This document shows positions 11,711 to 27,789 of a stretch of DNA of 32,000 bases, piece after piece. Source of the DNA: Breznakia sp. PF5-3. GTDB taxonomy: Bacteria; Bacillota_I; Bacilli_A; Erysipelotrichales; Erysipelotrichaceae. The notes beneath the pieces are model-generated. The model had not been told where the DNA came from, did not search any database, and was given only the letters and a program-made list of their open reading frames with translations. Positions within the stretch are counted from its first letter, which is position 1, and each line of letters opens with the position of its first letter. The position numbers and the translations under genes are program-made. The stretch is from the NCBI RefSeq assembly GCF_029504745.1, contig NZ_JAQFIQ010000007.1:30001-62000 (forward strand), given 5' to 3'.

Positions 11711-12205
11711 ATGTATGAAAAATGTATAGCGTTATTAAAAGAACGTGGTGTAGAAATTGAAGATATTGTTGATTGTGTCTTTTATTTACAACGTGGACAT
11801 ATTGATGATACAGATGCTGCATCGATAAGTGAAACAGTAAAGAAAGTAATTGATAAGCGTGAAGTTCAACATGCAATCATTACAGGTATTTGTTTGGATA
11901 AGATGAGTGAACAGCGTATGCTGGTGGATAAAGATTTAGAAGATATTTTAAATCGCGATGAATCACTATATGGAATTGATGAAGTACTAGCATATGGGAT
12001 TTGTAATTTATATGGTTCTATAGCTCTTACTAATTTTGGATATATCGATAAGGCGAAGTATGGAATTATCAAAGAGTTAAATGATCATATGGATAATCAT
12101 AATGCCTGTCATACATTTTTAGATGACATTGTAGGTGCGATTGCAGCTAGTGCTGCTAGTCGTATTGCTCATAATAAAAAGGGACCAGAAGATGAAACAT
12201 TGTAA
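11711..12205 (+). CDS. YutG-like phosphatidylglycerophosphatase A (PgpA) family protein
   Basis: Blocks LLKERGVEIEDI, KREVQHAIITGI, LYGIDEVLAYGICNLYGSIALTNFGYIDK, TFLDDIVGAIAASAASRIAH resemble B. subtilis YutG as I recall it. Start moved to ATG 11711 (MYEKCIALL). Confidence 0.7.
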   Translation: MYEKCIALLKERGVEIEDIVDCVFYLQRGHIDDTDAASISETVKKVIDKREVQHAIITGICLDKMSEQRMLVDKDLEDILNRDESLYGIDEVLAYGICNLYGSIALTNFGYIDKAKYGIIKELNDHMDNHNACHTFLDDIVGAIAASAASRIAHNKKGPEDETL

Positions 12206-12620
12206 ATGGATGCTTGCACTGTTGTCACTTACATTTATCATCACAGGTTGTTTTAATTCAAGGAATAGTGAAAAAAGCATGGAGATTGATGCAGAAACGG
12301 TTATTGAAAAGACAGTTAACCGAGAGACTTTTTTATTATTGATTGTGAATGATGATTGTGATCCTTGCGAGGATTTAATGTCGTTGATTAAAGTTCCACT
12401 GGCAAAAAACCAAATAACTTTATATAGGCTAAATTACGCTGATGTGAGTAATGATATGGCAGATCAGTTACAATTGATGTTAACATCATATTCTTCATGG
12501 CCAGCACTTGTATATGTGAAGGATGGAGAAGTTTATAGTGGTAGTGTTTATGAATATTCACTAGATCCAGAAGGGTGGGAAACATGGTTGATCAATCAGG
12601 GATTAATTCCACAAAATTAA
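12192..12620 (+). CDS. Thioredoxin-fold-like lipoprotein (CxxC)
   Basis: MKHCKWMLALLSLTFIITGC lipobox. The sequence then runs FLLLIVNDDCDPCEDL (CxxC at a helix start) ... SWPALVYVKDGEV (cis-Pro-like WPA plus beta-hairpin). The 5' part of the listed ORF (12135) overlaps the previous gene and was trimmed. Confidence 0.5.
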   Translation: MKHCKWMLALLSLTFIITGCFNSRNSEKSMEIDAETVIEKTVNRETFLLLIVNDDCDPCEDLMSLIKVPLAKNQITLYRLNYADVSNDMADQLQLMLTSYSSWPALVYVKDGEVYSGSVYEYSLDPEGWETWLINQGLIPQN

Positions 12621-13396: not shown

Positions 13397-13411
13397 GCAA
13401 AAAAATATGCA

Positions 13412-13453
13412 ATGTGTATTGTTCGGCATTATCGAACGATATACATTTTTTTT
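13412..13453 (+). terminator. Rho-independent terminator
   Basis: atgtgtattgttcg (13412-13425) pairs with cgaacgatatacat (13433-13446), including G-U pairs. 7-nt loop, then T7 (13447-13453). Confidence 0.8.
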
Positions 13454-13593
13454 GACAAGTTTGGATTTTAATATTTTAATTATATACAGTAAACGATTTT
13501 TGGATGGTTTTTTCGATATGATAAAAACAAGACAAAAAAAGTGATATTCATAGCAAATGTTACTATTTTAAATCGCATTGATTTAGGATAATC

Positions 13594-13622
13594 TTACAGG
13601 TAAATAAACAAATTGCTATAAT
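13594..13622 (+). promoter_or_regulatory. Sigma-A type promoter for the signal peptidase gene
   Basis: TTACAG (13594-13599)-N17-TATAAT (13617-13622), with TGc immediately upstream of the -10 (extended -10). It lies 18 nt upstream of ATG 13640. A second candidate is TTGACA (13452-13457)-N17-TTTAAT (13475-13480). Confidence 0.55.
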
Positions 13623-13639: not shown

Positions 13640-14200
13640 ATGAAGAAACTTAGAATCAGGAGTGAATATGTCATTTTTATTTTGAGAATGTTTGTAATCT
13701 TCAGCGTTCTTGTTTTTGTTGTAACTACTTTTATCTTTCGAACGGTGCGAATCAATGGACAAAGTATGGAACCAACATTACAAAGCGGAGAATATGCATT
13801 TTCAAACAGATTGGCAGCAGATGAAGGGAATATCAATCGATTTGATGTAATTGTAATTGATAACATTGAAGAAGATTATGTGGTGAAAAGAGTAATTGCA
13901 CTCCCCAATGAAACCATATCTTACAAAGATGGAAAGTTATATATTAATGGTGAATGGTATGAAGAACCATTCTTAGATCAAGAATATATTGCTTTGCATA
14001 CAATGAATAATCAAATTACTTTTACGCAAAATTTTGGACCAATCACATTAGGTGAAAATGAATATTTTGTACTTGGTGATAACCGATTGAATTCAAAAGA
14101 CTCTCGGGTCGTTGGTCCAATTCCTGAAAAAGACATTGTTGCAAAAGATGTAATTGTAGTATATCCGCTAAATAGTATACGTGTAGAAAGTTCCAACTAA
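13640..14200 (+). CDS. lepB: Signal peptidase I
   Basis: N-terminal TM, catalytic Ser box GQSMEPTL, Lys box VKRVIALPNE, and box E GDNRLNSKDSR. 186 aa. Confidence 0.92.
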   Translation: MKKLRIRSEYVIFILRMFVIFSVLVFVVTTFIFRTVRINGQSMEPTLQSGEYAFSNRLAADEGNINRFDVIVIDNIEEDYVVKRVIALPNETISYKDGKLYINGEWYEEPFLDQEYIALHTMNNQITFTQNFGPITLGENEYFVLGDNRLNSKDSRVVGPIPEKDIVAKDVIVVYPLNSIRVESSN

Positions 14201-14226
14201 TTTTTTAATTATTGGAACCTTTTTTG
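14190..14226 (+). terminator. Weak terminator-like hairpin after lepB, overlapping the -35 of the next promoter
   Basis: gttccaa (14190-14196) / ttggaac (14212-14218), 15-nt AT loop, then T6 (14220-14225). The stem is short, so this is tentative. Confidence 0.35.
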
Positions 14227-14238
14227 TTTATTTCCGTC
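14214..14238 (+). promoter_or_regulatory. ECF-type promoter P1 (GGAACC-N15-CGTC) upstream of sigma gene 1
   Basis: GGAACC 14214-14219, CGTC 14235-14238. Same motif and spacing as at 20795. ECF sigma promoters classically carry GGAAC at -35 and CGT(C) at -10. It lies 30 nt upstream of ATG 14268, which fits autoregulation. Confidence 0.6.
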
Positions 14239-14267
14239 AATATGTTAAGAAAGGATGAAAATGGAAT

Positions 14268-15593
14268 ATGAGCAGATTGAAAAAAGAAGAGATTCAAAAA
14301 TTTCTAGATGGAGACGATAGTGTTTTTCCTGAGATTTTTGCTGCTTATCGTAATAAGATTAATTATCTTGCGATAGAAATCTTACGAAACCAGGCAGATT
14401 GTGAGGAAGTAGTTCAAAATACGTTTATTAAAATCATTACCAAACGTAAGGATTTACGTGATGCTAGTGCTTTTAATACATGGATTTATCGAATTGCTTA
14501 CAACGACTGTATGGATATATATCGGCAAAATAAAAAGGGTAAAACAGGTATGAATAATGACTACACTCTAGAAAATTATTCTGACAACAAAGGAGAGCCA
14601 AACGATGTGGTGAGTAAAAAGGCAATTTTAGAAGCAATTCAAAGCGAAATTGATGGCCTTCCAGAGGATATGAAACAAGTGTGTTTGTTAAGATTCGTTG
14701 GTGAATGTAGCCTTGAAGAAATCTCTGAAATCATGAGTATTCCAAAAGGCACAGTAAAGAGTAGGCTAAACAGGGCAAAAGTAAAACTTCGAGAAGGGCT
14801 GGTTGATAAGCATGTGACTCCAGCAATCTATATGTCATTGTCATTTACACCTTTGGTATTTAAGTTGTATGCATCGTTAGTAAAACAACAAGAGATGCAA
14901 CCACTTGTAGAAACAAAAGTTGCTAAAGTTATTGAAAACGCAACAGGAGTAACAGCAGGAGTAACGGTCGCAAGCGGAGGAATGATTATAGGATTTGGTA
15001 GTGCAGTAATAGGAACATCTATATTATTAGCATTATTTGGCACTTATACGATTATAAATCCAATTATTGATCAAACGGCTGAAGTTGTAAAAATTGAGGA
15101 AATCAATTATTTGAAAGATCTTACAAATGAAAATTTGCAGATTGTTCTCATGTTCAGTGGAGAACCAGATGCAAAAGATATTAGTATAACATTTGTTGAT
15201 GAAAATACAACGATCGAGGCTGAATCCGTTGACAATGAAAACTACATGTTTGTTGCGAAGGCGAATGGAACATATCATGTAGAGTATGGTGGGGTAGCAC
15301 AGGATATCAAAGTTGATAACATTGACAAGCAAAGCCCTAAATTGAAAAGTTTAGAAAAGGAAGAAGGATTACTTAAGATTATAGGTAGTGATGATTTTTC
15401 TGGCATTGATTTCGATAAATCATACGTTGAAGAGGGTTCCAATAAGTTTGATTTGATCAAAATTGATGATACATCTGCATTTTTCAAAGATGCAGTTAAG
15501 AAAAAGGCAAAGCTGTATTTGTATGATAAGGTAGGAAATTACCAGGTCTATGAGATCAATGCAACAGATACAGTGAGCAATACAGATGGGTAG
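14268..15593 (+). CDS. Membrane-tethered ECF (sigma-70 family) sigma factor fused to a TM helix and an extracellular Ig-like C-terminal domain
   Basis: aa ~20-90 form sigma region 2 (EEVVQNTFIKI..AFNTWIYRIAYNDCMDIYR). aa ~125-180 form region 4 (LPEDMKQVCLLRF..SLEEISEIMSIPKGTVKSRLNRAK). The TM is GGMIIGFGSAVIGTSILLALFGTYTII. About 175 aa of ectodomain follow (NGTYHVEY..VDNIDKQSP; LYLYDKVGNYQVYEI). It is paralogous to 27790-29091. Confidence 0.8.
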   Translation: MSRLKKEEIQKFLDGDDSVFPEIFAAYRNKINYLAIEILRNQADCEEVVQNTFIKIITKRKDLRDASAFNTWIYRIAYNDCMDIYRQNKKGKTGMNNDYTLENYSDNKGEPNDVVSKKAILEAIQSEIDGLPEDMKQVCLLRFVGECSLEEISEIMSIPKGTVKSRLNRAKVKLREGLVDKHVTPAIYMSLSFTPLVFKLYASLVKQQEMQPLVETKVAKVIENATGVTAGVTVASGGMIIGFGSAVIGTSILLALFGTYTIINPIIDQTAEVVKIEEINYLKDLTNENLQIVLMFSGEPDAKDISITFVDENTTIEAESVDNENYMFVAKANGTYHVEYGGVAQDIKVDNIDKQSPKLKSLEKEEGLLKIIGSDDFSGIDFDKSYVEEGSNKFDLIKIDDTSAFFKDAVKKKAKLYLYDKVGNYQVYEINATDTVSNTDG

Positions 15594-15693
15594 TTTCATA
15601 AAATTAGGTCTATGAAACAATACACTGTATATCCATAAAGCAATTTATGGAGAAGTGAAAGATTATAAAATTAGAATGGAGGGAGTGAAAGTT

Positions 15694-18600
15694 TTGAGAC
15701 GTAAATACGTAAAAACATTAAAGATGTTTAAAAGGTGTTTTCTTACAGCACTGGCATTAGGTATTACACTTACGGCAATAAACCTGCCAAAAATGGATAT
15801 CCATGCTCAAACAGAGGATGTTCGCTATGATTTGCAAACGGAATTAAGCGAAGATAAAAAAGAACTTCGTATTGATTTATTAGCTTATGCAAATAGGAAT
15901 GATGTTGAAATAACGGCGATTGGTAACCCTGATGGGACCATCACGGATGGAGCAAAAACGTCATATGTTTCTGTAACAAATGAAACATTGACATTTGTGG
16001 TGAACTACAAAATATTAGAAGAGAAAGATGGAAAAATAAAAGAAATCTCAAAGACAAAAGAAGTTGAATATGAGGTGGATCAATTTGGTAAAGAAGAAGA
16101 GGCACAGCCTCAAGCATTAAGTGATCCATTGGCACCATTTTCATCTTTAAAAGCAAATATGAGTTTTAGAAATGCTTTTAATGTATCTCATACAAAAGAT
16201 GGGTTATACTATCTTTCTGATAATTCTATGGAATTAGGGTATCACTATAATGAATATGTGAAATTTTTGCTTAGCAAAGCACGTTGTACTACATCAAAGT
16301 ATTGGGAAGGCTGGTATGCGAAGTTTGCTGCAGTATCAAAATATAAAGTTGATTTCTCAAAAGATTTTAAAGTTACAAACGTAATATCTTCAAATCCAAC
16401 ATTATATGGAGATGGGTTCACGTTAGGATTTCAAACAGATCCAAACTTTACATATACAACAGGTAAAGGGGGTTCTATAGGAGTTTACCGTAATGGTAGT
16501 GACTATGGGGCTCGCAATGGTGTAGTATTTGAAGTTGATTATCATGATAACTCTCCAGATGGAATGTGGCATGATATAGGATTAGGTGGAAATCACTTAG
16601 CAATTCATACAACGGATGCTTATGGAAATGAATCAACTCCAGTTGCTTCTTGGTTCGGTGTAAAACACACAGGAAGTCTAACTGCATTCAATGTGACTTG
16701 GACAATTACAGATAAAGCTACAAACACTGGGACATTGACATTTACATATGGAACATACAATTTGAAATATACAAATTTCAGACCACATGAAGTATTTGGT
16801 GGGTCAGTAAACAATCCTACAGCAGCATATTTAACATATACTGGAGTAATCTTGAAAGATTATGGTTCAAATAACAAACCATTCCAAATCACAATGACAG
16901 ATTATTCTTATCTTGAAGATGAAGTAACTGCAAGTGATGGATTTATTACCCAAACTCAAGCAAAAGCTTTGGCAAACCAAAATGGATTAATTCTTTATAA
17001 CAATGCATCTGCAGTTTCTACTGCTGGAGATAGTGTTACACCTACGGTTTCAACACCTGCATGGAGCAACATTAAATCTGGTTTAGTAGGTACTTATGAT
17101 GTGACATATGCTTATGGAACAGCATCAAAAACAGTAAAATTAAGCGTAATTAAAGATGGATCAATCATTTCACCAAACAAGGATTTCTCACTTTATGCAG
17201 AAAATGCTTCCTTGTTACAAAGTGAAGCAATTGCATTAAGTTCAATGAATGATTTAGTATCTGTTCATGATGCAAGTGTAACGATGGCAAATGGAACGCT
17301 TCTTGCACCAAATGCAACAACAAGTGCTTGGTCATCAATCAAAGCTGGGGTTGTAGGAAATTACGTGATTACTTTCTATTATGGAACAGGATCAAACTAC
17401 ACAGCAAAAAACGTTACATTATCAGTTGTTGCTGATAAGAAACATGAAATATATGCAAGTGATGGATTTATTACCCAATCACAAGCTAAGGCACTTACGA
17501 GTATGCAAGGATTTATTCCTTACAACCAAGCAAAAGTAATTACTAATGAAGGTGTTACTACGGTGCCAAGTACCGTTGCTACGAACTATTGGAATGAAAT
17601 TAACACAGGAACAATCGGTTCTTATAACGTTACATATTCTTATGGATCAGGAACAGCAAGAGTATCAAAAACAGTAAAATTAAATGTTGTGAAAGATGGA
17701 ACTGTGTTCCCTCCAGATAACAGTTTTGCATTATATGCAGAAGATGGTTTTATTAAACAAAGTCAAGCAAAAGCACTTACATCAACAAGCCAATTAATAC
17801 CTTATAACAATGCGAGCGTAACATTGGCTGATGGAAGTAGTGATGTACCATTCGTTAGTTTAAATACTTGGTCAAATATTGTGAGTGGAACGATTGGTAG
17901 CTACGATATCGTATATATGTATGGTGCTGGTGCTAACCTTAAATATAAAGTTGTGAAATTAAACGTTATTGAAGATGGTGGTATTATTGCACCAGATAAG
18001 AGTTTTGCATTATATGCAGATAATGGAACGATTTCACAAACCCAAGCATCTGCACTTACAGGTACATCACAATTAATCCCTTATAACAATGCGAAAGTAA
18101 TTTTGGCGAACGGAACACGTGCAGAACCAAATGTATCTGCTCCAACGTATAGCGAAATTGTGAGTGGGGTTGTAAAGACTCATAAAGTTACATATAGTTA
18201 TGGAGTGCTTACAAACAAAGTATCTAAAGAAGTAGACTTACAATTAATTGCTGATAAGCGTCATGAAGTTCGCGCAGAAGATGGCTTCATTTATGCAACA
18301 CAAGCGAAAGCATTAACAAATCAAAGTGAATTAATTCCATTTAATAGTGCAAGTGTTATAACAAACACTGGTCAAAGTGCACAACCGGTTGTAACAACAG
18401 GAAGTTGGGCTAACATTGTAGCTGGGGTAACTGGTTCATATGATATTACTTATAGCTATGGAAGTGGAACAACACAAGGATCAAAAACAGTAGTCTTGAA
18501 TGTTGTACCAGATGGAACAATATTCCCACCAGATAAAGCATTTGCAGTATATGCAGAAGATGGTTTAATCAATGTGGAACAAGCGAAGAAGTTAACAGCA

Positions 18601-20691
18601 CAAAAAGATCTTATTCCATATAACTCAGCATATGTAATGTTGAAAAATGGAACGATTGTAGATCCAGATGTATCTACTTGGGATTGGGTAAAAATCTCAG
18701 CTGGAATTGAAGGAACATATGATGTTAACTATGGTTATACAATTATGCCGAATACGGTTCAAAAAGGTGTAAAACTTACTGTAACAAAAGGTACAACACC
18801 ACCAAGTAATTCATTCTCATTATATGCTAGAGATGGATTTGTATATGAAGATCAAGCAAAAGCATTTACTGCCCAAAAAGATATGATTCCATTCAATGAT
18901 GCTTTTGTAACATTGAAGGATGGATCAAGTGTAGATCCACAAGTTGCAACACCTCATTGGTCAGCAATTAAGGATGGAACAATTGGTTCATATCCAGTAA
19001 CATATGGTTATACAAAGGGTAGTGAATCATTATCAAGTGTTGTGAAATTGAATGTTGTAGAAAATGGTTCTACCATTTCACCAGGACAAGATTTTGCAAT
19101 TTATGCTAAGAATGGAATTATTCAACAATCATCTGCACAAGCATTGATTAGCTTGAATGATTTAATTCCTTACAATGGTGCAAAAGTTACCCTTAAAGAT
19201 GGTAGTGAAGCTACGCCAACGGTAACAACAGCAGATTGGACAGCAATTCGTGCAGGAGTATTGGGTACATATTCAATTACCTATAGTTATGGTAGTGGTA
19301 CGAATACAGCATCTAAAGTGGTAACACTAAGAGTAGTACCAGATGGAAATCCTTCACCAGAAGGAGACTTCATCTTATATGCTTCAAATGGATTCATTTC
19401 AAAAGAGCAGGCGATGGCTATTACAAGTCAAAAAGATTTGATTCCATATAACAAAGCATCCGTTATCAAGGACGATGGTAGCGATGCAGAACCATCTGTA
19501 TCAACAACTAGTTATGCAGATATTAAAGCTGGTAAATTAGGTGTTTACAATGTAACATATCGTTATGGATTTGGTACAAACTTAGTTTCAAAAACAGTGA
19601 AACTTACAGTTCATGATGGTACTCCTTCACCAGGAGGAAATTATGTATTAAATGCTAAAGATGGTTTAATTTCTAAAAGCGAAGCAAAAGCATTAAGTTC
19701 AACAGCAGACTTAATTGCAATTAACGACGCATCTGTTTGGATGAATGATGGATCAACTGATGTTCCAGTGGTTACAATGCTACCACTTAATTGGTTATCT
19801 TTAAATGAAGGTATTATCAATAGCTATCCAGTTCTTTATAGTTATGGAAGTGGTAGTGATTATACACAAAAAACAGTTCGTGTAACAGTGTATGATGATG
19901 GTGGTATCATATCTCCAAATAAAGACTTTGTATTAAATGCTAAGAATGCAGTATTAACACAAAGTGAAGCAAAAACTTTAACAAGTGCAAGTGACTTAAC
20001 CGTTTATAATGATGCTCTTGTTAGTTATGCAAATGGTAACAAAGCAATTCCAAATACAACAGCTACAGAATTTGCTTCTATTAAAAGTGGTGTAGTAGGA
20101 ACTTACAATGTAACATATGATTATGGTACAGGATCTAATTACACAGAAAAAGCAGTGAAATTAGTAGTTGTAAAGGATGGCGCATTGATTGCACCAGATC
20201 GTAGTTTTGCGATTTATGCAGAAGATGTAACATTGAATCAAGATGAGGCACGCGCATTGACAAACAAAAATCAAATTACAAGTTTGGCACACGCGATGGT
20301 CTATATTGCAGATGGAACAACAGCAACACCTACGTTGTCACTTCCAGATTGGGATGATATCAAAGCAGGTATTTCAAATGATTATGCTGCTGATTTCACA
20401 TATCAAGATGTAACAGGTAGTATTAATATAAAAGTTACGCAAGAATATGTAACAAGATATCTATTTGACTATGATAATAACAAACGTATTGATGTTATTG
20501 ATTATGCTTATTTTGCAAGTTACTATAGTGGTGCAACACCAATGTCTCCATTGGCTTGGGCATTAACAGATTACCCACCAGGAGATGGACGTATCGATGT
20601 TATCGATTTAGCACACTTTAAACGTCATTACAGCGATTCGACACTTCCATTGGTTGAAGTAGAAGTACCAGCAGATTGGCGCTTAGAATAA
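15694..20691 (+). CDS. Giant secreted adhesin-like protein: signal peptide, N-terminal beta module, L-type lectin-like domain, 13 Ig-like (Big_3/DUF5011-like) repeats and a C-terminal dockerin-like module
   Basis: The likely start is TTG 15694, 11 nt after GGAGG (15678-15682); the listed GTG 15655 has no SD. Signal peptide RRKYVKTLKMFKRCFLTALALGITLTAINL..IHA/QT. Lectin-like blocks DGFTLGFQ, GGSIGVY, NGVVFEVDYHDN, NHLAIHT. Repeat signature DGFIxQxQAKALT..LIPYN.A.V...G....P.V....W..I..G..G(S/T)Y.VTY.YG.G....K.V.L.V. The C-terminus has two Ca-loop-like segments, DYDNNKRIDVID and PGDGRIDVID. Confidence 0.85.
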   Translation: MRRKYVKTLKMFKRCFLTALALGITLTAINLPKMDIHAQTEDVRYDLQTELSEDKKELRIDLLAYANRNDVEITAIGNPDGTITDGAKTSYVSVTNETLTFVVNYKILEEKDGKIKEISKTKEVEYEVDQFGKEEEAQPQALSDPLAPFSSLKANMSFRNAFNVSHTKDGLYYLSDNSMELGYHYNEYVKFLLSKARCTTSKYWEGWYAKFAAVSKYKVDFSKDFKVTNVISSNPTLYGDGFTLGFQTDPNFTYTTGKGGSIGVYRNGSDYGARNGVVFEVDYHDNSPDGMWHDIGLGGNHLAIHTTDAYGNESTPVASWFGVKHTGSLTAFNVTWTITDKATNTGTLTFTYGTYNLKYTNFRPHEVFGGSVNNPTAAYLTYTGVILKDYGSNNKPFQITMTDYSYLEDEVTASDGFITQTQAKALANQNGLILYNNASAVSTAGDSVTPTVSTPAWSNIKSGLVGTYDVTYAYGTASKTVKLSVIKDGSIISPNKDFSLYAENASLLQSEAIALSSMNDLVSVHDASVTMANGTLLAPNATTSAWSSIKAGVVGNYVITFYYGTGSNYTAKNVTLSVVADKKHEIYASDGFITQSQAKALTSMQGFIPYNQAKVITNEGVTTVPSTVATNYWNEINTGTIGSYNVTYSYGSGTARVSKTVKLNVVKDGTVFPPDNSFALYAEDGFIKQSQAKALTSTSQLIPYNNASVTLADGSSDVPFVSLNTWSNIVSGTIGSYDIVYMYGAGANLKYKVVKLNVIEDGGIIAPDKSFALYADNGTISQTQASALTGTSQLIPYNNAKVILANGTRAEPNVSAPTYSEIVSGVVKTHKVTYSYGVLTNKVSKEVDLQLIADKRHEVRAEDGFIYATQAKALTNQSELIPFNSASVITNTGQSAQPVVTTGSWANIVAGVTGSYDITYSYGSGTTQGSKTVVLNVVPDGTIFPPDKAFAVYAEDGLINVEQAKKLTAQKDLIPYNSAYVMLKNGTIVDPDVSTWDWVKISAGIEGTYDVNYGYTIMPNTVQKGVKLTVTKGTTPPSNSFSLYARDGFVYEDQAKAFTAQKDMIPFNDAFVTLKDGSSVDPQVATPHWSAIKDGTIGSYPVTYGYTKGSESLSSVVKLNVVENGSTISPGQDFAIYAKNGIIQQSSAQALISLNDLIPYNGAKVTLKDGSEATPTVTTADWTAIRAGVLGTYSITYSYGSGTNTASKVVTLRVVPDGNPSPEGDFILYASNGFISKEQAMAITSQKDLIPYNKASVIKDDGSDAEPSVSTTSYADIKAGKLGVYNVTYRYGFGTNLVSKTVKLTVHDGTPSPGGNYVLNAKDGLISKSEAKALSSTADLIAINDASVWMNDGSTDVPVVTMLPLNWLSLNEGIINSYPVLYSYGSGSDYTQKTVRVTVYDDGGIISPNKDFVLNAKNAVLTQSEAKTLTSASDLTVYNDALVSYANGNKAIPNTTATEFASIKSGVVGTYNVTYDYGTGSNYTEKAVKLVVVKDGALIAPDRSFAIYAEDVTLNQDEARALTNKNQITSLAHAMVYIADGTTATPTLSLPDWDDIKAGISNDYAADFTYQDVTGSINIKVTQEYVTRYLFDYDNNKRIDVIDYAYFASYYSGATPMSPLAWALTDYPPGDGRIDVIDLAHFKRHYSDSTLPLVEVEVPADWRLE
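16921..20445 (+). repeat. 13 tandem, diverged ~255-285 nt (~88-90 aa) coding repeats (Ig-like modules)
   Basis: I counted 13 units from the recurring (L/I/V)YA(E/D/K/S)(D/N)GF..(Q/E)AKAL .. G(S/T)Y(D/N)VTY.YG motifs. Short identical DNA strings recur, e.g. aaaacagtaaaattaa at ~17131 and ~17671. Confidence 0.85.
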
Positions 20692-20744
20692 GCGAATATC
20701 GTAAATTTACATCATCAATTGATGTAGAAAGTATAGCTTTAGGT

Positions 20745-20775
20745 AAAGAGGATGCTAACGCATTCTCTTTTTTTA
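20745..20775 (+). terminator. Strong rho-independent terminator after the giant adhesin gene
   Basis: aaagaggatgc (20745-20755) / gcattctcttt (20760-20770), 11 bp with one G-U. The loop is taac and the stem runs into ttttttt. Confidence 0.8.
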
Positions 20776-20794
20776 CATTTTTTTATGAATTTAT

Positions 20795-20819
20795 GGAACC
20801 TTTTGCGCTGGATTCCGTC
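20795..20819 (+). promoter_or_regulatory. ECF-type promoter P3 (GGAACC-N15-CGTC) upstream of the cohesin-like gene operon
   Basis: GGAACC 20795-20800, CGTC 20816-20819. The flank TTCCGTCGATAT compares with P1 TTCCGTCAATAT. It lies ~60 nt upstream of ATG 20881 and just downstream of terminator 20745-20775. Confidence 0.6.
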
Positions 20820-20880
20820 GATATTACAGAAAGGAGCATTTTACATTGTAATTTTTATTTTATGTAAAGAGGAGGACGAA

Positions 20881-22413
20881 ATGAAATTGAAAATAAAGAG
20901 TAATAAATTCAAGATCCTGGCAGTTGTAGTTTTGGCTGCTATTGTGGCAATCCCAAGTATGTTGGCAGCAAAGCCTATGGATACGAAAGCGGATGAAGTA
21001 GATGGCGAACCTACTTTTGATATTGCACCAATACATCAGGTAACTAGAAATGATGGAGGAGGAGCATATGGAACACATGCTCAACAAAGCTATGTAGAAG
21101 ATGGTGTTCAATATTATCGTAATGGCGATATTATTGAAGTAAGCATCATGCTTCCTAAAGGACACGGTGCGACCGTATTCCAAGATGTTGTAAAATATGA
21201 CGAAGAGAAATTAACATTAATTTCACCTTTCACAGATATTAAAGCAACATTATCTAAAAACTATTTAGATAAAAGATGGTCAACAGAAGTGTCAAACCCA
21301 AATGCAGATACTTCACGTATTTTAGTATTTGGATCAGCAGCAGATTTTACAACTGGTGCTGAATACCAAGGTGGTAGTGTTGCTAGAATGTATTTCCGCG
21401 TTAATAATAATGTGGAATCTGATGCAGGTACAGCAATTACATTTGAATTCCCAGAATTCCAAACCGCTGGATATTCAAATGGAAAAGTTGTATATACACA
21501 CAGAGGATATGATGCAAATAACGATGCAGCTACTGCATTCTATCAAGCAGAACCAGTTACAATATATGCAAAAACACCTTCAAAAACAGTAAATGCACCA
21601 ACCCTTAACTTGAAGAATAGTTCAGCAACTATTTATGAAGGAGATTTATTTGATCCAGCTTCATACATAAGCAATGCTTCTTGTGAGGTTGATAAATCAG
21701 TAAGCAAAGACACTGTTGATATTAGTGAAGGAACTGGAGTTTATACAAAACATCAACCAGCAGCTGGAACTTATGTTTATAAATACAGCGTAACAAGTAG
21801 TACAGGAAAATCAACAGAGAAACAATTGTCTTTAAAAGTAACAGCAAGAACATATACAGTTGCTTCTATCGATGTAGATTCTAAAAAAATATCATTGCCT
21901 GTTGGAACAGCAAGTTCTGATTTAGAAGCAATGATTAATGAGATGAAAAAAGAAGACTTTAATGTAACTATTACTTGTAATGATGGTTCTAAATTTGTTG
22001 TTCCAGGAAAAGTATTGAATGGAAAAACAGATACTTACCGTATTGATGAAAACGATAAGTTATTAGCACAAACATTTAATGTTAACTTTACATTAGCATT
22101 GCCACTTGTTTCTTATGGAACAGATGGATCAAGAATTGTAACGCCATACAATGGAAGTTCAAGTTTTGTAAGTAATGTTGGAAATGGAAGAGCGGATGCA
22201 AAAGTTCCTGTTATTATCGGTACAGGTAATTCAGGAGGAAACAATACTGGAGGAAATTCTTCAGGAAAACCATCTACTGCACCTACAGCAGGAAGTAGTA
22301 ATGGTAGTGGTTCTGCAGCTTCAACAGGGGATACAACAAATGTAACATTCCTTGCAGTATTAGCTATTTTATCAGCAGGATTTATCGTACGTTCAAAATT
22401 TAAAAAACAATAA
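20881..22413 (+). CDS. Cell-surface anchoring protein: signal peptide, cohesin-like module, Ig-like domains, G/S/N/T linker and a cell-wall-sorting-like C-terminus
   Basis: Start ATG 20881 after agaggagg; the listed 20752 extension crosses a terminator and a promoter. Signal peptide KFKILAVVVLAAIVAIPSMLAAKP. Cohesin-like region ~21004-21575 (GDIIEVSIMLP..VFQDVVKYDEEKLTLIS..RILVFG..GGSVARMYFRVNN..GTAITFEF). Big_3-like SSATIYEGDLFDP..GTYVYKYSV. Tail GSGSAASTGDTTNVTFLAVLAILSAGFIVRSKFKKQ. Confidence 0.8.
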   Translation: MKLKIKSNKFKILAVVVLAAIVAIPSMLAAKPMDTKADEVDGEPTFDIAPIHQVTRNDGGGAYGTHAQQSYVEDGVQYYRNGDIIEVSIMLPKGHGATVFQDVVKYDEEKLTLISPFTDIKATLSKNYLDKRWSTEVSNPNADTSRILVFGSAADFTTGAEYQGGSVARMYFRVNNNVESDAGTAITFEFPEFQTAGYSNGKVVYTHRGYDANNDAATAFYQAEPVTIYAKTPSKTVNAPTLNLKNSSATIYEGDLFDPASYISNASCEVDKSVSKDTVDISEGTGVYTKHQPAAGTYVYKYSVTSSTGKSTEKQLSLKVTARTYTVASIDVDSKKISLPVGTASSDLEAMINEMKKEDFNVTITCNDGSKFVVPGKVLNGKTDTYRIDENDKLLAQTFNVNFTLALPLVSYGTDGSRIVTPYNGSSSFVSNVGNGRADAKVPVIIGTGNSGGNNTGGNSSGKPSTAPTAGSSNGSGSAASTGDTTNVTFLAVLAILSAGFIVRSKFKKQ

Positions 22414-22473
22414 AAGAAAAGACAGATGTAGAAAAGGTGTTTTATACATCTTTTCTACCATGTAGGAGGGAAA

Positions 22474-25400
22474 ATGAAAAAATTCTTTAAATTATTTATC
22501 GCTGCATTTATAGCAGTAACATGTATTGTTCCTTTACAAAGTATTTCAGCGGCTTATGGAGATCCAGTAGAGCCAATTTACCAAATTTCACGTAATGATG
22601 GTGGAGGGAAATATGGAACACATAAGAACCCTGATTATAAAGAGGGAACTACACAATATTACCGTGATGGAGATATTATCGAGGTAGATTTCAGATTACC
22701 AGCTGATTCAGGAGTTCAAATTTATAACCAAGTTATTAAATATGACTCAGATCAGTTAGATTTATTATCATCAGATACAGATATTACAGGTACTTTATCA
22801 TCTACTTTCACAAGTAAGAATTGGTCAAGTACAACAGCAAGAGACAATAATGACAATGAAAAAATCTTAGTTTATGGGGGAAGTAATAACTTTGGAAACC
22901 CTGATACAAAAGATTATACAGGTGGAACGATTGCTAAGGTTTACTTCAAAGTAAAAAATGGAGTTGAATCAACAGCAGGAACACCAATTACATTTGAATT
23001 TATGAATTTTCAAACAGCAGAGTTTAAAAATAACAAAGTTTCTTATACACATATAGGATATGATCCTAACAACGATGCAGGAACGGTATACTATACAGCT
23101 CCTTCACAAACCATTCAAGTAAAGAAACCAAGTGTAACATTTAGTGCTAATGATGGATTTATTACACAAAGCCAAGCAAAAGCATTAAATACAAAGAATG
23201 ATTTAAAAGCTTATAATGATGTAAGTGCAAAATTAACTGATGGCACTAATATTGATGTGACAACAGATGCACAAAACTTCAATGATATTAAAGCTGGAAA
23301 AATTGGTTCTTATGATGTGACATATGGATATACACATGATGGAAATTCAGATAGTAAAAAAGTAAAATTAAATGTAGTATCTGATGATGCAGTTATCTCA
23401 CCAGAGAAAAATTTTGCTTTATCAGCAGAACATGCATTTATTACTGCATCGGATGCGAAAAAGTTAACGAATAAAACACAATTGATTTCACTTAACAATG
23501 CAAAAGTAACATTGAAAAATGGTACTAACGCTACACCTAATGTAGATGCACCTGCATTTGCTTCTATTCAAGCAGGAAGTGTTGGAACTTACGAAGTTAC
23601 TTATAGTTATGGAAGTGGGTCTGATACAGCAAGTAAAAAAGTGTTTGTAACGGTTGTGAAAGATGGTTCGGTGATTTCACCTAACAAAGATTTCTCACTT
23701 TATGCAAAACATGGATTTATTAAGAATACAGAAGCTAAAAATTTAACAAGTAGAACTCAATTGATTCCATATAACAATGCAGAAGTTACACTTGTAAATG
23801 GAGATAAAAGAGATCCTAGACCAACAGTAACAGCTGCTGAATGGTTATCAATTACTTCTGGTATTAAAGGAAGTTACAATGTTCTTTATGAATATGGTGA
23901 TGGAGCAAATGAAACAAGCTTGGTTGTTAAAATAACAGTCATTGATGAAAACGATCCAATCTCACCAAACAAAGAAGCAAGTCTATCTGCACAAGATGTT
24001 GAGCTTAGTGAAACAGAAGCAAAAGCGCTTACATCAAAGAATGATTTGATTGCTTTAAATAAAGCGTCTGTTACATTATCTGACGGTTCTGTGGCAACAC
24101 CAACGATAGCAAGTGTTGATTATGCTAGTATAGTATCGGGTAAAATTGGAATTTATCCAATTACATATACATATGGTAGTGGTCAAGGAAAAGTTGATAA
24201 GACAGTAAATGTAATCGTTAAAGAAGATAAAAAACATGTAATTACATATGAAGATAAGATTATTACTGTTGATCAAGCAAAAGCATTATCTAGTAAAGAT
24301 GATCTTAGAGTGGTAAACAATGTTCAAGTAACAGCAATTGATGGATCACATCCAAATGCAGTTGTTGATGCACCAACATGGAGTTCTATTAAAGATGGTA
24401 AATTAGGAACATACACAGTTACTTATAGTTATGGATACGGAGATAAATTAGTATCTGTAAATGCAAAAGTTACAATCGTTCCAAATGGTTCAGAAATTGA
24501 TGATAACGCAAGTTTATATGCGCAAAATGGATTCCTTGAACAATCATCTGCAAAAGCACTAGTAACTAGAAATGATTTAATTCCTTATAATGCAGCGTCA
24601 GTTACATTATTAAGTGGTGGAACAGCAACGCCAACGGTTGGAATGAGCGCAGGAGATTGGTACTTATTGTCGGCAGGAGAATTAGGTTCATATGATGTTG
24701 TTTATTCATATGCAAGTTTAAGCAAACGTGTTCTTGCAACAGTAATTAAAGATGGATCTATCGTTTCTGAAGATAAGACAGCAAGTTTATATGCAGAAAA
24801 TGCATTTATTGAATCAAGCAATGCTAAGAAATTAGCAAATAAAGAAGCACTTAGAGCATATAACAAAGCGTCTGTAACATTAATTGATGGTAGAACAGCG
24901 AACGCAACAGTAGATGTTGCAGCTGCTGATTGGTTAGCAATCCAACAAGGAACAGTTGGAGCATATGACATACTATATACATATGGAAGTGGAGATGGAC
25001 AAGTTAGCAAGCGTGTAAAAATTGTTGTTATCGATGATGATCCAATCATTTCTCAAGATGGGAAAGTTGCATTGAATGCAGTTGATGGTGAAATTGCGGA
25101 TACGGATGCAAAGAAAGTTACAAGCAAAGAAGACTTGATTCCATATAACAGTGCAAAAGTTACATTGGAAGATGGAACTATCGCTAAATTGGATGTAACA
25201 ATATCTACAAGTAGCTTAAATGCTATTAAAGCAGGTACGTTAGGTACTTATACTGTTACATACTCTTATGGAAGTGTTGGAAGCCCAAGTTATGTAAGTA
25301 AAACAGTAAAATTAGAAGTTGTAATTAAAACAAGAGCAATTCATATGTTTGACTATGATGATAACAAACGTATTGATGTTATTGACTTAGCACATTTCAA

Positions 25401-25569
25401 TAGAATTTATTCTAATTCTATGAATGTTTCTGCATATGATTTAATGTTAACTGACTTCAACAAAGATAAACGTGTTGATGTTATTGATTTAACACAGTTT
25501 AAATATTACTATTCTAATTCATTGATTCTTCCACCAACAGTGGATGTACCAGTTGAAATAATTCCATAA
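22474..25569 (+). CDS. Secreted adaptor-like protein: signal peptide, cohesin-like module, 8 Ig-like repeats and a C-terminal dockerin-like module
   Basis: Signal peptide MKKFFKLFIAAFIAVTCIVPLQSISA/AYG. Cohesin-like region ~22555-23133 (GDIIEVDFRLPADSGVQIYNQVIKYDSDQLDLLS..KILVYGG..GGTIAKVYFKVKNG..GTPITFEF). Eight repeats of the same family as in 15694-20691. Dockerin-like DYDDNKRIDVIDLAHFNRIY ... DFNKDKRVDVIDLTQFKYYY. Confidence 0.85.
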   Translation: MKKFFKLFIAAFIAVTCIVPLQSISAAYGDPVEPIYQISRNDGGGKYGTHKNPDYKEGTTQYYRDGDIIEVDFRLPADSGVQIYNQVIKYDSDQLDLLSSDTDITGTLSSTFTSKNWSSTTARDNNDNEKILVYGGSNNFGNPDTKDYTGGTIAKVYFKVKNGVESTAGTPITFEFMNFQTAEFKNNKVSYTHIGYDPNNDAGTVYYTAPSQTIQVKKPSVTFSANDGFITQSQAKALNTKNDLKAYNDVSAKLTDGTNIDVTTDAQNFNDIKAGKIGSYDVTYGYTHDGNSDSKKVKLNVVSDDAVISPEKNFALSAEHAFITASDAKKLTNKTQLISLNNAKVTLKNGTNATPNVDAPAFASIQAGSVGTYEVTYSYGSGSDTASKKVFVTVVKDGSVISPNKDFSLYAKHGFIKNTEAKNLTSRTQLIPYNNAEVTLVNGDKRDPRPTVTAAEWLSITSGIKGSYNVLYEYGDGANETSLVVKITVIDENDPISPNKEASLSAQDVELSETEAKALTSKNDLIALNKASVTLSDGSVATPTIASVDYASIVSGKIGIYPITYTYGSGQGKVDKTVNVIVKEDKKHVITYEDKIITVDQAKALSSKDDLRVVNNVQVTAIDGSHPNAVVDAPTWSSIKDGKLGTYTVTYSYGYGDKLVSVNAKVTIVPNGSEIDDNASLYAQNGFLEQSSAKALVTRNDLIPYNAASVTLLSGGTATPTVGMSAGDWYLLSAGELGSYDVVYSYASLSKRVLATVIKDGSIVSEDKTASLYAENAFIESSNAKKLANKEALRAYNKASVTLIDGRTANATVDVAAADWLAIQQGTVGAYDILYTYGSGDGQVSKRVKIVVIDDDPIISQDGKVALNAVDGEIADTDAKKVTSKEDLIPYNSAKVTLEDGTIAKLDVTISTSSLNAIKAGTLGTYTVTYSYGSVGSPSYVSKTVKLEVVIKTRAIHMFDYDDNKRIDVIDLAHFNRIYSNSMNVSAYDLMLTDFNKDKRVDVIDLTQFKYYYSNSLILPPTVDVPVEIIP
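23140..25325 (+). repeat. 8 tandem diverged ~270 nt coding repeats (Ig-like modules), same family as 16921-20445
   Basis: Units start at FSANDGFITQSQAKAL, LSAEHAFITASDAKKL, LYAKHGFIKNTEAKNL, LSAQDVELSETEAKAL, ITYEDKIITVDQAKAL, LYAQNGFLEQSSAKAL, LYAENAFIESSNAKKL and LNAVDGEIADTDAKKV. Confidence 0.85.
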
Positions 25570-25598
25570 ACCTTATGATAATGAAGGGAAGGTTATTT

Positions 25599-26675
25599 AT
25601 GAGAAAACTAAAAAAACAAATAGCTATTCTTACAGTATTGATAATTGCATTCATTACTTGTGCTAGCCCTTTACAGGCTGTGCATTATTCACAAGTGCCA
25701 AGTAATAATGGGGGACACCGTTTGCAAAATTCAATTGCATATGTAGGAGGTGGAAGAGCACCATTTACAGAAAATGGAGTGACGTATTATAATGCAGGAA
25801 ATGTGATCGAGCTAACGGTCACATTACCTGCTAATACATACGCAGTATCTTTGCAAGAAATCATTACCTATGATTTAAATCAAGTAGATTTGGTAACAAG
25901 TTTTAATGATATTCGTCAAACCTTTGGGCAATCCCTTTTGAATGAAGGATGGGCACAAGATGTATTTAAGATGAATGGAAACAATAATCAAATTTTACTT
26001 TCTGCAGCAGGAAGTGATTGGACTAATCACTCAAGTATTGCTGGTGGAGTTGTAGGAAAGATACGTTTTCGAATCAAAGAACAAACAACAACTAATGTTG
26101 GAACAAATATCAACATTAATTTTGTTTATCAAATTGCAGGAGCAAAACCAAATGGAAAAGGGTTGGCATATATTCATGCTGGATATGATCCAAGCAATGA
26201 AGGCGGTACCTATCAAGTATCTGCACCAACGATTTCAATTGCGGCTCATAAGATACCATCTGCACCAACGACACCTACCAATCCTGAAAAACCTACTGAT
26301 CCAGTCGTGGATTATCATCCAAGTGTTGTGATCGATAAGGAAATCAGTGAAAGTAAGAAAAAAGAGATTGCGGCAATTACAGCGAAACGGGATTATTCAT
26401 TCGCAAAATCGAATGATTTTATGAATGGAAAGAATTCGTATCGAAATATTGCGAAAATGTTGATTGATCAAATGGTAAAGACAAAAGATAAAATCAAATA
26501 TCAAACATATGAGTTTAAAGATCAATATTTAGATATAAAGGCTAAGAAGACAATTGTGAAAACTACTTGTTATACACATTATCTTTATATCGGGATGAGT
26601 TTTGTAGTAATTTTTGTAACATATGGTTATAAAAAATATTTAGAAGCGAATCGTAAAGTGAAATGGAGGTCTTAA
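25599..26675 (+). CDS. Membrane-anchored cohesin-like protein: signal peptide, cohesin-like module, Pro/Thr linker and a C-terminal TM helix
   Basis: Start ATG 25599 after gaagggaagg. Signal peptide KQIAILTVLIIAFITCASPLQA/VH. Cohesin-like region ~25680-26253 (GNVIELTVTLPAN..LQEIITYDLNQVDLVTS..QILLSAAG..GGVVGKIRFRIKE..GTNININF). Linker PSAPTTPTNPEKPTDP. C-terminal TM YLYIGMSFVVIFVTYGY followed by KKYLEANRK. Confidence 0.75.
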   Translation: MRKLKKQIAILTVLIIAFITCASPLQAVHYSQVPSNNGGHRLQNSIAYVGGGRAPFTENGVTYYNAGNVIELTVTLPANTYAVSLQEIITYDLNQVDLVTSFNDIRQTFGQSLLNEGWAQDVFKMNGNNNQILLSAAGSDWTNHSSIAGGVVGKIRFRIKEQTTTNVGTNININFVYQIAGAKPNGKGLAYIHAGYDPSNEGGTYQVSAPTISIAAHKIPSAPTTPTNPEKPTDPVVDYHPSVVIDKEISESKKKEIAAITAKRDYSFAKSNDFMNGKNSYRNIAKMLIDQMVKTKDKIKYQTYEFKDQYLDIKAKKTIVKTTCYTHYLYIGMSFVVIFVTYGYKKYLEANRKVKWRS

Positions 26676-26678
26676 TTT

Positions 26679-26828
26679 ATGAACTGTGGATATGACATGA
26701 TGGCTTTGATATTATTCTTTATTACCGTGTTTGTTTGTAGCTTTTATATCATGAAATTAAAGCGTCAACATGCACAAAGTAATGTCTTACATGATCAATT
26801 TTCAAAATATTTTAAAAAAAATGATTAA
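26679..26828 (+). CDS. Small (49 aa) single-TM protein; not in the supplied ORF track
   Basis: The ATG lies 9 nt after GGAGG (26665-26669, inside the end of the previous gene) and 3 nt after its stop. Sequence MNCGYDMMALILFFITVFVCSFYIMKLKRQHAQSNVLHDQFSKYFKKND: one TM followed by a basic tail. Confidence 0.45.
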   Translation: MNCGYDMMALILFFITVFVCSFYIMKLKRQHAQSNVLHDQFSKYFKKND

Positions 26829-26832
26829 AAAC

Positions 26833-26858
26833 GGAACCTTTTTCGGATTATAAGCGTC
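26833..26858 (+). promoter_or_regulatory. ECF-type promoter motif P2 (GGAACC-N16-CGTC) with no adjacent gene
   Basis: GGAACC 26833-26838, CGTC 26855-26858. It shares GGAACCTTTTT with P1. The next CDS starts 273 nt downstream. Confidence 0.45.
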
Positions 26859-27130: not shown

Positions 27131-27592
27131 ATGAAAAAAATTATAATTAGCTCAATTTGCTTTGTTGCATTACTAGCTGGATGTTCTTCTGGTAGCAAGG
27201 GAAGTGAAAAAGTTTGTACAATGACACAAGGAGCTAGTGATGAATTAGAAGAAAAAATTACCATTTCTTATGATGGAGATACAGTAACAACCATTGTTTC
27301 AAAGACTACCATTGATGTAGAAAAAACGAAAACAGGTACAACAATGGAGGATTTAGAAAAGCTTGCAAAAGATGTTGATAAAGTTTATAACGCTATCAAG
27401 GGTGTAAAGTATACATATGAAAGCAAAGATAAGAAATTCTATGAAACGATAACTGTAGATATCAAGGAAGAGAATATGGAAGAATTACAAAACAAGGGAA
27501 TGATTAATATGTATGTTGATGAAGATGGAAAAATCTTAAAAGCTGACAAATTGATTGATTTCTTGAAAGATTCAGGAATGAAGTGTAAATAA
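27131..27592 (+). CDS. Lipoprotein, YehR/DUF1307-like
   Basis: Lipobox LLAGC (MKKIIISSICFVALLAGCSSG). ~150 aa with an alternating beta/alpha pattern (ITISYDGDTVTTIV..; YNAIKGVKYTYESKDKKFYETITVD; ..KADKLIDFLKDSGMKCK), typical of DUF1307 lipoproteins as I recall them. Confidence 0.6.
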   Translation: MKKIIISSICFVALLAGCSSGSKGSEKVCTMTQGASDELEEKITISYDGDTVTTIVSKTTIDVEKTKTGTTMEDLEKLAKDVDKVYNAIKGVKYTYESKDKKFYETITVDIKEENMEELQNKGMINMYVDEDGKILKADKLIDFLKDSGMKCK

Positions 27593-27739: not shown

Positions 27740-27789
27740 AATTATATGATAGGTTATATTTTTGTCATGTATTGAAAGGGGGCGATGCT

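Follow-up and report, generated by a model that had tools for sequence, protein, structure and literature searches.

The subject of this study is a cohesin–dockerin gene cassette in a 32,000-nucleotide stretch of DNA from Breznakia sp. PF5-3, the whole of which we call the window. Breznakia is an insect-gut bacterium of the class Erysipelotrichia with cultured isolates, and proteins identical to those of the window also occur in three other unclassified Breznakia isolates. All of the genes in the window lie on the plus strand, the G+C content is ~33%, and the composition is even along the window. The cassette encodes, in this order, an extracytoplasmic function (ECF) sigma factor, a large fibre protein ending in a dockerin, a cohesin-bearing anchor (anchor A), an adaptor with both a cohesin and a dockerin, a second cohesin-bearing anchor (anchor B), and a small hydrophobic protein. 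With moderate confidence, we read it as a self-contained, ECF-controlled cohesin–dockerin system that would build long, non-enzymatic surface fibres in Breznakia. An earlier note on this DNA had delimited the locus, and our map of the open reading frames (ORFs) agrees with its coordinates. The limits that it drew also coincide with recognisable features: an ECF-type promoter motif begins at 14214, and a conserved 49-residue ORF stops at 26828.

The DNA covered comprised the 32-kb window, 6 kb further downstream, and related loci, which were retrieved with an alignment of the three cohesin modules of the window. Five systems were compared: those of the window, B. pachnodae DSM 16784, a Breznakia metagenome-assembled genome (MAG), a metagenomic contig (L005), and the distant assembly GCA_028749475.1 (L006). 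The labels L001 and L002 denote the syntenic Breznakia loci, and L009 extends past the end of the window. Three alignments were used, consisting of 21 cohesin-family sequences (A3), nine dockerins (A4), and the Ig (immunoglobulin)-like repeats (A5).

The ORFs at 20881–22413, 22474–25569, and 25599–26675 each start with a signal-peptide-like hydrophobic segment, which is followed by a common module of ~185–187 residues. Relative to the 22474 copy, the module of anchor A is 51% and that of anchor B is 32% identical, with 44 invariant columns. The alignment and the hydrophobic N-termini thus bear out the earlier description of three consecutive secreted proteins with a shared N-terminal module. 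In GenBank, all three proteins are annotated as "hypothetical protein". With the Pfam Cohesin model (PF00963; cut-off 24.1 bits), the module of anchor B scores 18.9 bits (E 1.8e-3) when isolated, and those of anchor A and the adaptor give no match. The family's own hidden Markov model (HMM) recognises the anchor A cohesin with an E-value of 1.8e-79. When 1.84 billion cluster representatives were searched exhaustively with HMMER, the three-module profile yielded 24 matches, 19 of which are clear family members, and four of the five weaker matches are Pfam-verified multi-cohesin scaffoldins. Members of this family are rare: at 50% identity, they account for 19 of the 1.84 billion clusters. With the cohesin alignment, a word-indexed search through 5.8 billion clusters returned no relatives, and a single-sequence search of the PDB with anchor B returned only noise.

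The profile of the A3 alignment, searched against the PDB sequences, matched the ScaA cohesin dyad of A. cellulolyticus (3l8q, E 1.2e-6), followed by 3fnk (2.4e-4) and 3ghp (4.7e-4). In an hhalign comparison, A3 aligned with four Pfam-verified cohesins at a probability of 97.6% and an E-value of 3.8e-12, which is optimistic because these four cohesins were chosen from the profile's own matches. The AlphaFold2 model of the adaptor cohesin, built from the 21-sequence alignment, is all-beta with short helices and has a predicted local distance difference test score (pLDDT) of 94.2 and a predicted template modelling score (pTM) of 0.89. When this model was compared with the PDB by Foldseek, every one of the top 38 matches was a cohesin; types I, II, and III were all represented, and the E-values ran from 3e-6 to 3e-4. 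Their target-normalised template modelling (TM) scores range from 0.28 to 0.64, with ~0.5–0.64 for most single-domain cohesin chains. Scores of this moderate size fit a module of ~187 residues with additional elements at both its N- and C-terminus; such extensions are absent from classical cohesins. A first AlphaFold run with only three sequences, now superseded, gave a mediocre model (pLDDT 64.5), and its top 50 Foldseek matches were already cohesins only. The window cohesins are 12–23% identical to solved cohesins, and both the profile and the structural matches spread over types I, II, and III with no clear preference for one subtype. The Foldseek check that the earlier note had suggested thus recovers the cohesin fold at the level of the whole model. 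Judged from the profiles and the predicted fold, we conclude that the N-terminal modules are true but very divergent cohesins, which form a clade of their own. The earlier claim of cohesin identity accordingly holds for the profile matches to solved cohesins, the hhalign comparison, and the AlphaFold/Foldseek fold, but not at the level of the Pfam Cohesin cut-off; the identification rests on profiles and fold.

The partners of these modules would be the C-terminal tails of the fibre and the adaptor. The ORFs 15694 (15655)–20691 and 22474–25569 terminate in a duplicated loop–helix segment of ~20 residues. The fibre dockerin is encoded at 20455–20685, with Ca-loop/helix segments at 20467–20526 and 20569–20631, and the adaptor dockerin at 25339–25566, with segments at 25351–25410 and 25453–25512. 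Asp or Asn occupies the EF-hand positions 1, 3, 5, 9, and 12 in three of the four loops of the window; the fourth, in the fibre, is degenerate and reads YPPGDGRIDVID (YPPGDG). In the B. pachnodae orthologues the Ca loops are fully canonical, as in DSNGDGRIDILD, and the dockerin loops and helices are well conserved throughout the nine-sequence alignment. The duplicated EF-hand tails that the earlier note had described are thus found where it had placed them, with three of the four loops canonical.

Against the Pfam Dockerin_1 model (PF00404; cut-off 22.9), the isolated tails score 24.7 bits (fibre, E 2.7e-5) and 27.0 bits (adaptor, E 5.2e-6), and in the full-length context they score 13.3 and 18.2 bits, under the cut-off. 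The A4 profile matches solved dockerins, namely the 8x39 double dockerin (E 5e-11), 2vn5_B (1.4e-6), and 4fl4_A, 1daq, and 2mte (1.3e-5). With the isolated tails exceeding the Pfam cut-off and the profile matching solved dockerins, the dockerin identity proposed earlier is upheld, type I being a putative subtype, and, on the evidence of these comparisons, the tails are true dockerins. With the dockerin profile, a word-indexed search gave a single, unrelated protein of 74 residues, and a metagenome scan with a closer dockerin alignment found no relatives; both searches are insensitive. In all family members, the dockerins end in a conserved extension, (L/P)P-x-V-x-(V/I)-P-x (20640–20691 and 25520–25569 in the window). 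This extension is not known from classical dockerins; in the complex, it might serve as an additional strand or as a clasp.

The fibre protein, which would be the cargo of the system, has 1665 residues (15694–20691) and consists of a signal peptide, a head of ~400 residues, 13 Ig-like repeats, and the dockerin. Its ORF is open from 15655, and the TTG at 15694, 8 nucleotides after GGAGGGAG, is a plausible start. The stalk is formed by 13 tandem, Big_3-like repeats of ~91 residues each (16921–20457), aligned in A5. By jackhmmer, 13 repeats were found in the fibre and eight in the 1031-residue adaptor, each with an E-value of 1e-25 to 1e-43, and the repeats of the fibre are also visible as DNA repeat families. 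The stalk of 13 Ig-like domains described in the earlier note is therefore exact in number. We call the repeats Ig-like because Pfam Big_3 matches the adaptor above its cut-off (E 7.1e-7), as the search of the PDB with the repeat profile gave nothing significant (best E 0.2).

The first ~130 residues of the fibre (15718–16116) resemble the NCBIfam model NF053816 (List_LCP_LPXTG) with an E-value of 4.8e-17 and 62.5 bits, a partial match far under the cut-off of 175. These residues belong to the head, the centre of which contains a possible, weakly matching L-type (legume) lectin-like beta-sandwich at 16330–16764 (Pfam PF18483). The heads of the fibre orthologues in L001 and L002 are 55–57% identical to that of the window, and PF18483 has no match in two ~60%-identical fibre orthologues. 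Searches of the PDB with the fibre head, as a single sequence and as a profile, found nothing, and a word-indexed search with it found only a repeat-level match. The lectin-like head of the earlier note thus retains a sub-threshold PF18483 match in the window copy, but its orthologues are silent and the PDB profile search is empty. In L006 (2547–3900), the fibre head has no detectable similarity to that of the window, and the Ig-like stalk and the dockerin are kept. This replacement suggests head swapping, as would be expected if the tip of an adhesin were diversifying. The idea that the L006 head is C-type-lectin-like was dropped, as searches of Pfam and the PDB gave no support for it.

How would such a fibre be held at the cell surface? 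Anchor A (510 residues, 20881–22413) consists of a signal peptide, the cohesin (21013–21576), a middle part of ~250 residues, a Gly/Ser-rich linker, and a C-terminal tail (22321–22410) in which STGDTTN is followed by a hydrophobic stretch and KFKKQ. The LPXTG_anchor model TIGR01167 scores 13.1 bits on this tail, versus a cut-off of 15.9, and the anchor A orthologues have the same GDTT tail. An unrelated leucine-rich repeat (LRR) surface protein encoded 4 kb downstream ends likewise, in AGDTTD, a hydrophobic segment, and basic residues (L009 13650–13791). Therefore, [ST/A]GDTT[ND] is probably a general surface-anchoring signal of the organism, resembling LPXTG without the LP, and it may be a variant sorting motif of the lineage.

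The adaptor (1031 residues, 22474–25569) combines a signal peptide, a cohesin (22558–23127), eight Ig-like repeats (23134–25347), and its dockerin. Anchor B (358 residues, 25599–26675) comprises a signal peptide, a cohesin of a distinct subclade (25707–26252), a Pro-rich linker (26256–26303), a region of ~90 residues, a transmembrane helix (26568–26630), and a basic tail. Directly 3′ of the anchor B gene lies the gene for the conserved hydrophobic protein of 49 residues (MNCGYDMMALILFFITVFVCSFYIMKLKRQ...; 26679–26828), with orthologues in the same position in L001, L002, and L006 (50 residues in L006). Further 3′, at 27131–27592, is the gene for a DUF1307 lipoprotein with the lipobox LAGC (Pfam DUF1307, E 2e-10). 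A DUF1307 lipoprotein gene also lies 3′ of the cassette in L001, L002, L005, and L006, and the lipoprotein is a possible member of the system.

Both B. pachnodae DSM 16784 and the Breznakia MAG have the cassette in synteny, and the metagenomic contig contains it as well; altogether, at least five sources from Breznakia or the Coprobacillaceae keep the gene set. In L006 the fibre gene has moved upstream and the same set is retained, that is, fibre, S26 signal peptidase, sigma factor, anchor A, adaptor, anchor B, the 50-residue protein, and DUF1307. All five systems contain exactly three cohesins and two dockerins. Every cohesin-bearing protein in them has exactly one cohesin, a multi-cohesin scaffoldin being absent, and the adaptor bears a cohesin and a dockerin in each case. 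When the modules of the five systems are compared, the cohesins of anchor B group in a clade of their own. The combination to which the earlier note had drawn attention, of two anchors, a cohesin-plus-dockerin adaptor, a dockerin-tipped fibre, and a linked sigma factor, is thus real and is kept as a set in five sources. The ORFs of the window match no Pfam family of glycoside hydrolases, carbohydrate-binding modules (CBMs), polysaccharide lyases, or carbohydrate esterases, nor was an enzyme or CBM found in the related loci. The absence of sequences like those of carbohydrate-active enzymes (CAZymes), which the earlier note had reported, accordingly holds for the window and the syntenic loci.

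Next, we consider how the cassette would be controlled. The sigma gene (14268–15593) encodes a sigma part (residues 1–180), a hydrophobic, transmembrane-like segment (residues 236–259, nucleotides 14973–15044), and a C-terminal domain of ~180 residues in which the motifs NIDKxxP and LYDxxGN are invariant. Pfam recognises Sigma70_r2 and r4_2 in the sigma part, which has only sigma-2 and sigma-4 domains, and the NCBIfam sigma70-ECF model scores 94.8 bits, against a cut-off of 42.9. As judged by these matches, the product is a bona fide ECF sigma factor. L001, L002, and L006 share its full-length architecture, as does a paralogue at 27772–29091 (28% identity). Both paralogues head clusters of surface-protein genes, and the motifs NIDKxxP and LYDxxGN are common to both. 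A tethered sigma factor with an apparently outward-facing domain, encoded beside an S26 peptidase in the first cluster, is unusual.

Three ECF-type promoter motifs accompany these genes. The first, GGAACCTTTT-N11-CGTC at 14214–14238, lies 30 nucleotides upstream of the sigma gene and has the same position in L001 and L002. The second, with the same spacing, lies at 20795–20819, upstream of the anchor A gene and just past a terminator-like hairpin (20745–20770; an 11-bp stem followed by a T-run) that separates this gene from the fibre gene. It is conserved in the aligned intergenic regions of L001, L002, and L006 and is also present in L007. The third, GGAACCTTTT-N12-CGTC at 26833–26858, follows the 49-residue ORF, ~270 nucleotides upstream of the DUF1307 gene, and has the same position in L001. 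The pattern GGAAC-N15-18-CGTC occurs three times in the window, versus 0.04 expected, each time as GGAAC-N16/17-CGTC, and the relocated fibre gene of L006 has a motif copy of its own. The linkage of the sigma factor to the cassette, already noted earlier, is strengthened by these motifs, with which the predicted transcription units begin, and the locus fits a positively autoregulated ECF regulon of two or three transcription units.

The S26 type I signal peptidase gene (13640–14200; Pfam Peptidase_S26, E 1.2e-43) is preceded by a sigma-70-like promoter (13593–13622) and, before that, a strong terminator-like hairpin (13411–13447). It occupies the same position, beside the sigma gene, in L001, L002, L006, and L007. 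As a speculation, the peptidase could process the large secreted proteins, or it could perform the site-1 cleavage of the C-terminal domain of the sigma factor. In B. subtilis, signal peptidase cleaves RsiV during the activation of sigma-V.

The surroundings of the cassette are of two kinds. The upstream flank is housekeeping in character, with genes for an ABC ATPase, GNAT, DeoR, LuxS, an iron-dependent alcohol dehydrogenase (Fe-ADH), MATE, a P-type ATPase, PgpA, and an aminoglycoside acetyltransferase. It also contains an azaaromatic (yjdF) riboswitch at 4719–4815 (84 bits versus a cut-off of 45), an ordinary feature upstream of the DUF2992/yjdF gene (4808–5248), as well as ORFs at 7141–7923 (260 residues) and 12135–12620 (161 residues) without a Pfam match. 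With housekeeping flanks and even composition, there is no sign of a mobile-element origin, phage and plasmid collections not having been searched. Downstream, a second adhesin module headed by the sigma paralogue occupies 27772–32000 and continues beyond the window (L009 8688–18944). It includes a membrane protein with a Listeria–Bacteroides repeat (29103–30272), an LRR and Ig-like protein of 874 residues that starts at ~30269 and runs off the window, and a protein of >1681 residues with a "pectate lyase-like adhesive domain" (PF20585). No cohesin or dockerin was found in the parts of this module that were seen.

On this basis, we propose the following mechanism. Anchor A would be held at the wall or the membrane through its LPXTG-like tail, and anchor B would be held in the membrane by its C-terminal transmembrane helix. 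The dockerin of the adaptor would plug into an anchor cohesin, and the fibre dockerin would plug into the cohesin of the adaptor or straight into that of anchor A. Joined in this way, without covalent bonds and in dependence on Ca2+, as many as 21 Ig-like domains would form a stalk and present, at a distance from the cell, a head that binds a ligand, possibly a glycan. The sigma factor, presumably tethered through its hydrophobic segment and with an outward-facing domain, would turn on its own gene and the fibre gene, together with the anchor–adaptor operon. We infer the adhesin character from the lack of an enzyme domain, the Lcp-like N-terminus of the fibre, the head replacement in L006, and the neighbouring proteins with LRRs or an adhesive domain. 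Those of the refuting tests named in the earlier note that were run left the idea standing. Taken as a whole, the interpretation is supported for the identity and architecture of the modules, as seen in the sequences and the model, and both Ca2+-dependent binding and adhesion by the proteins of the locus are plausible.

Several observations weigh against this interpretation. None of the three modules reaches the Pfam cohesin cut-off of 24.1 bits, and positions 1 and 3 of the second fibre loop (DYPPGDGRIDVID) lack Asp or Asn. The PF18483 match to the head of the window fibre is weak, at 31.7 bits (E 1.8e-7) versus a cut-off of 78.3. At the presumed cell-wall end, the anchor A motif AASTGDTTN retains TG-D without the LP and is not a canonical LPXTG, and no sortase gene was found in the window. 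Moreover, the short stalk of anchor B might bury its cohesin in the wall, where it could serve assembly rather than display. Finally, with the view confined to the window and the related loci, dockerin-bearing enzymes are possible elsewhere in the genome.

This last point leads to a reading in which the locus supplies the scaffold for an ordinary cellulosome- or amylosome-like system, with enzymes bearing matching dockerins encoded elsewhere and the fibre as one of many cargos. The dockerin-bearing enzymes of known systems are, as a rule, encoded at scattered places in the genome, and the 32 kb of the window and 6 kb downstream are a limited view of it. The CttA and ScaE genes of R. flavefaciens lie beside scaffoldin genes (PMC4266597, PMC2930009). 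Nevertheless, each protein here has a single cohesin and there is no multi-cohesin scaffoldin, the cassette keeps a fixed ratio of three cohesins to two dockerins in five sources, and no enzyme or CBM occurs in any of the loci; the word-indexed search with the dockerin profile gave one small, unrelated match and the metagenome scan none, both being insensitive. Breznakia is not known to be cellulolytic. We consider an enzyme system of this kind unlikely. Still less probable is a set of look-alike modules that no longer pair, in which the beta-sandwich would be a carbohydrate-binding or spacer domain and the EF-hand pair would bind only Ca2+ or wall polymers. The great divergence of the cohesins (12–23% identity to solved ones), their extensions beyond the classical module, and the one degenerate Ca loop speak for such a loss, but the two module types strictly co-occur at a fixed ratio in one co-regulated cassette, they show signs of changing in concert within genomes, and the loops and helices of the dockerins show good conservation. 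We regard the look-alike explanation as very improbable because of this strict co-occurrence and co-variation.

The concerted change also bears on how the proteins would be joined. The cohesins of anchor A and the adaptor are 82% identical in L006 and 56% identical in L005, as against ~27–34% and 41–51% across genomes, and the two dockerins of each genome share helix signatures (D-x-x-D-K-x-x-L-N-Y-Y in L006 and G-Y-V-D-I-L-D-L-N in L005). As far as such sequence comparisons go, this suggests overlapping specificities, which would permit the head-to-tail polymerisation of the adaptor. The adaptor bears both modules in every system, and the domain roles correspond to the tip, backbone, and base of a pilus. 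It is thus possible, although we hold it to be rather improbable, that the cohesin–8×Ig–dockerin protein polymerises into a non-covalent pilus, with a cohesin-only anchor as the base and the dockerin-only fibre as the cap. Such an adaptor polymer would be a sortase-independent pilus, and its expression would be controlled by a sigma factor that is tethered through a hydrophobic segment to an outward-facing sensor domain and that the adjacent signal peptidase possibly releases, a picture that we put forward only tentatively. Streptococcal pilus islands also hold a signal peptidase homologue. However, the likeness within genomes could be due to gene conversion without functional meaning, and in the window the identity between orthologues (61–64%) exceeds that between paralogues (49%), so the signal of concerted change is not uniform. 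In the adaptor scaffoldins of cellulosomes, moreover, cohesin and dockerin differ in specificity, which prevents self-association. The reading that we favour is the display of a long adhesive fibre on anchored cohesins.

If the binding is as proposed, the cohesin–dockerin principle would reach into the Erysipelotrichia and into the building of adhesive fibres outside polysaccharide degradation. If polymerisation also holds true, it would be a third way to a surface filament, by means of cellulosome joints, besides sortase pili and chaperone–usher or type IV pili. The case further indicates that standard HMM annotation misses entire cohesin families. With only three cohesins and two dockerins, and with cultured isolates at hand, the system lends itself to direct tests of specificity, mechanostability under load, and possible polymerisation. 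In practical terms, it could provide orthogonal cohesin–dockerin pairs for protein-assembly engineering, and it would be a candidate colonisation factor for insect-gut symbionts.

How does the system compare with known ones? Our search of the literature found no paper tying Breznakia or the Erysipelotrichia to such a system. The occurrence of cohesins and dockerins outside cellulose degradation is long known, according to the mention of Peer et al. 2009 in PMC9012536, and the amylosomes of R. bromii are cohesin–dockerin enzyme systems for other substrates (PMC4611034). The non-cellulosomal pairs of the C. perfringens toxin and glycosidase complexes, Archaeoglobus fulgidus, anaerobic methanotrophic (ANME) archaea, and R. 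bromii likewise reach beyond cellulose degradation, and the Foldseek matches of the window module include cohesins of C. perfringens and A. fulgidus (2jh2, 2o4e, 2xdh). In contrast to the present locus, these pairs link enzymes or have an unclear role, and they do not form a compact anchor/adaptor/fibre operon. The same hierarchy of anchor, adaptor, and cargo is seen in the A. cellulolyticus and Clostridium thermocellum scaffoldins (ScaA, ScaB, SdbA, and OlpB type), which also provide the best sequence-profile matches (3l8q, 3fnk, 3ghp, and 4u3s). They differ in having several cohesins each, anchoring by S-layer homology (SLH) domains, and CAZyme cargos, and they are regulated by separate pairs of sigma-I and RsgI.

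Two other comparisons are with adhesins. The sortase-assembled pili of Gram-positive bacteria offer a functional analogy only, as they combine a tip adhesin, a shaft of repeated Ig-like domains, and a wall-anchored base, and the pilus islands contain a dedicated regulator and a gene of the signal peptidase family. Unlike them, the window shows no evident sortase, pilin motif, or isopeptide chemistry, and its joints would be non-covalent. Lcp of Listeria monocytogenes, an LPXTG cellulose-binding adhesin, promotes attachment to plant surfaces (PMC10172500). The likeness to Lcp is confined to the N-terminal ~130 residues of the fibre, partial and far below the model cut-off, and Lcp is covalently anchored to the wall by its LPXTG motif, whereas the fibre of the window ends in a dockerin.

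The closest single arrangement is CttA–ScaE of R. flavefaciens, in which a non-catalytic binding protein with a terminal X-module and dockerin docks onto a single cohesin, itself anchored by sortase, and keeps the cell attached to its substrate (PMC4266597). In both cases a non-catalytic binder ends in a dockerin, the partner is a single-cohesin protein, wall-anchored in R. flavefaciens and putatively so here, and the genes share one cluster with adaptor scaffoldins, the pairing in the window being a predicted one. The purpose of CttA–ScaE is adhesion and not catalysis, as the fibre's would presumably be. An Ig-like module also precedes the dockerin in both, the X-module of CttA corresponding in place to the last, truncated Ig-like repeat of the window. 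The differences are equally clear: CttA–ScaE operates within a large, enzyme-bearing cellulosome with cellulose-binding CBMs, whereas no enzymes or CBMs were seen here, and the window adds stalks of eight and 13 Ig-like repeats and a second cohesin, predicted to be membrane-anchored. In addition, the cohesins of the window belong to a separate, very divergent Erysipelotrichia clade, and the putative sorting signal of anchor A lacks the LP. A 2026 study reports that many divergent ruminococcal cohesins escape sequence HMMs and that R. difficilis has scaffoldins with Ig-like, LRR, and mucin-binding domains (PMC13463774); these systems are the nearest precedent for adhesion-oriented cohesin systems. 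The earlier note had known of no described compact operon that unites two anchors, an adaptor, a lectin fibre, and a sigma factor. The concept of an adhesion link made of a cohesin and a dockerin and encoded in one gene cluster does have a precedent in CttA–ScaE (PMC4266597). What is new in comparison is the Erysipelotrichia lineage with its separate cohesin clade, a compact cassette that is enzyme-free so far as seen, and the Ig-repeat stalks, together with the pair of anchors, a potentially polymerising cohesin–stalk–dockerin protein, and an ECF sigma factor that continues into a hydrophobic segment and a further, C-terminal domain.

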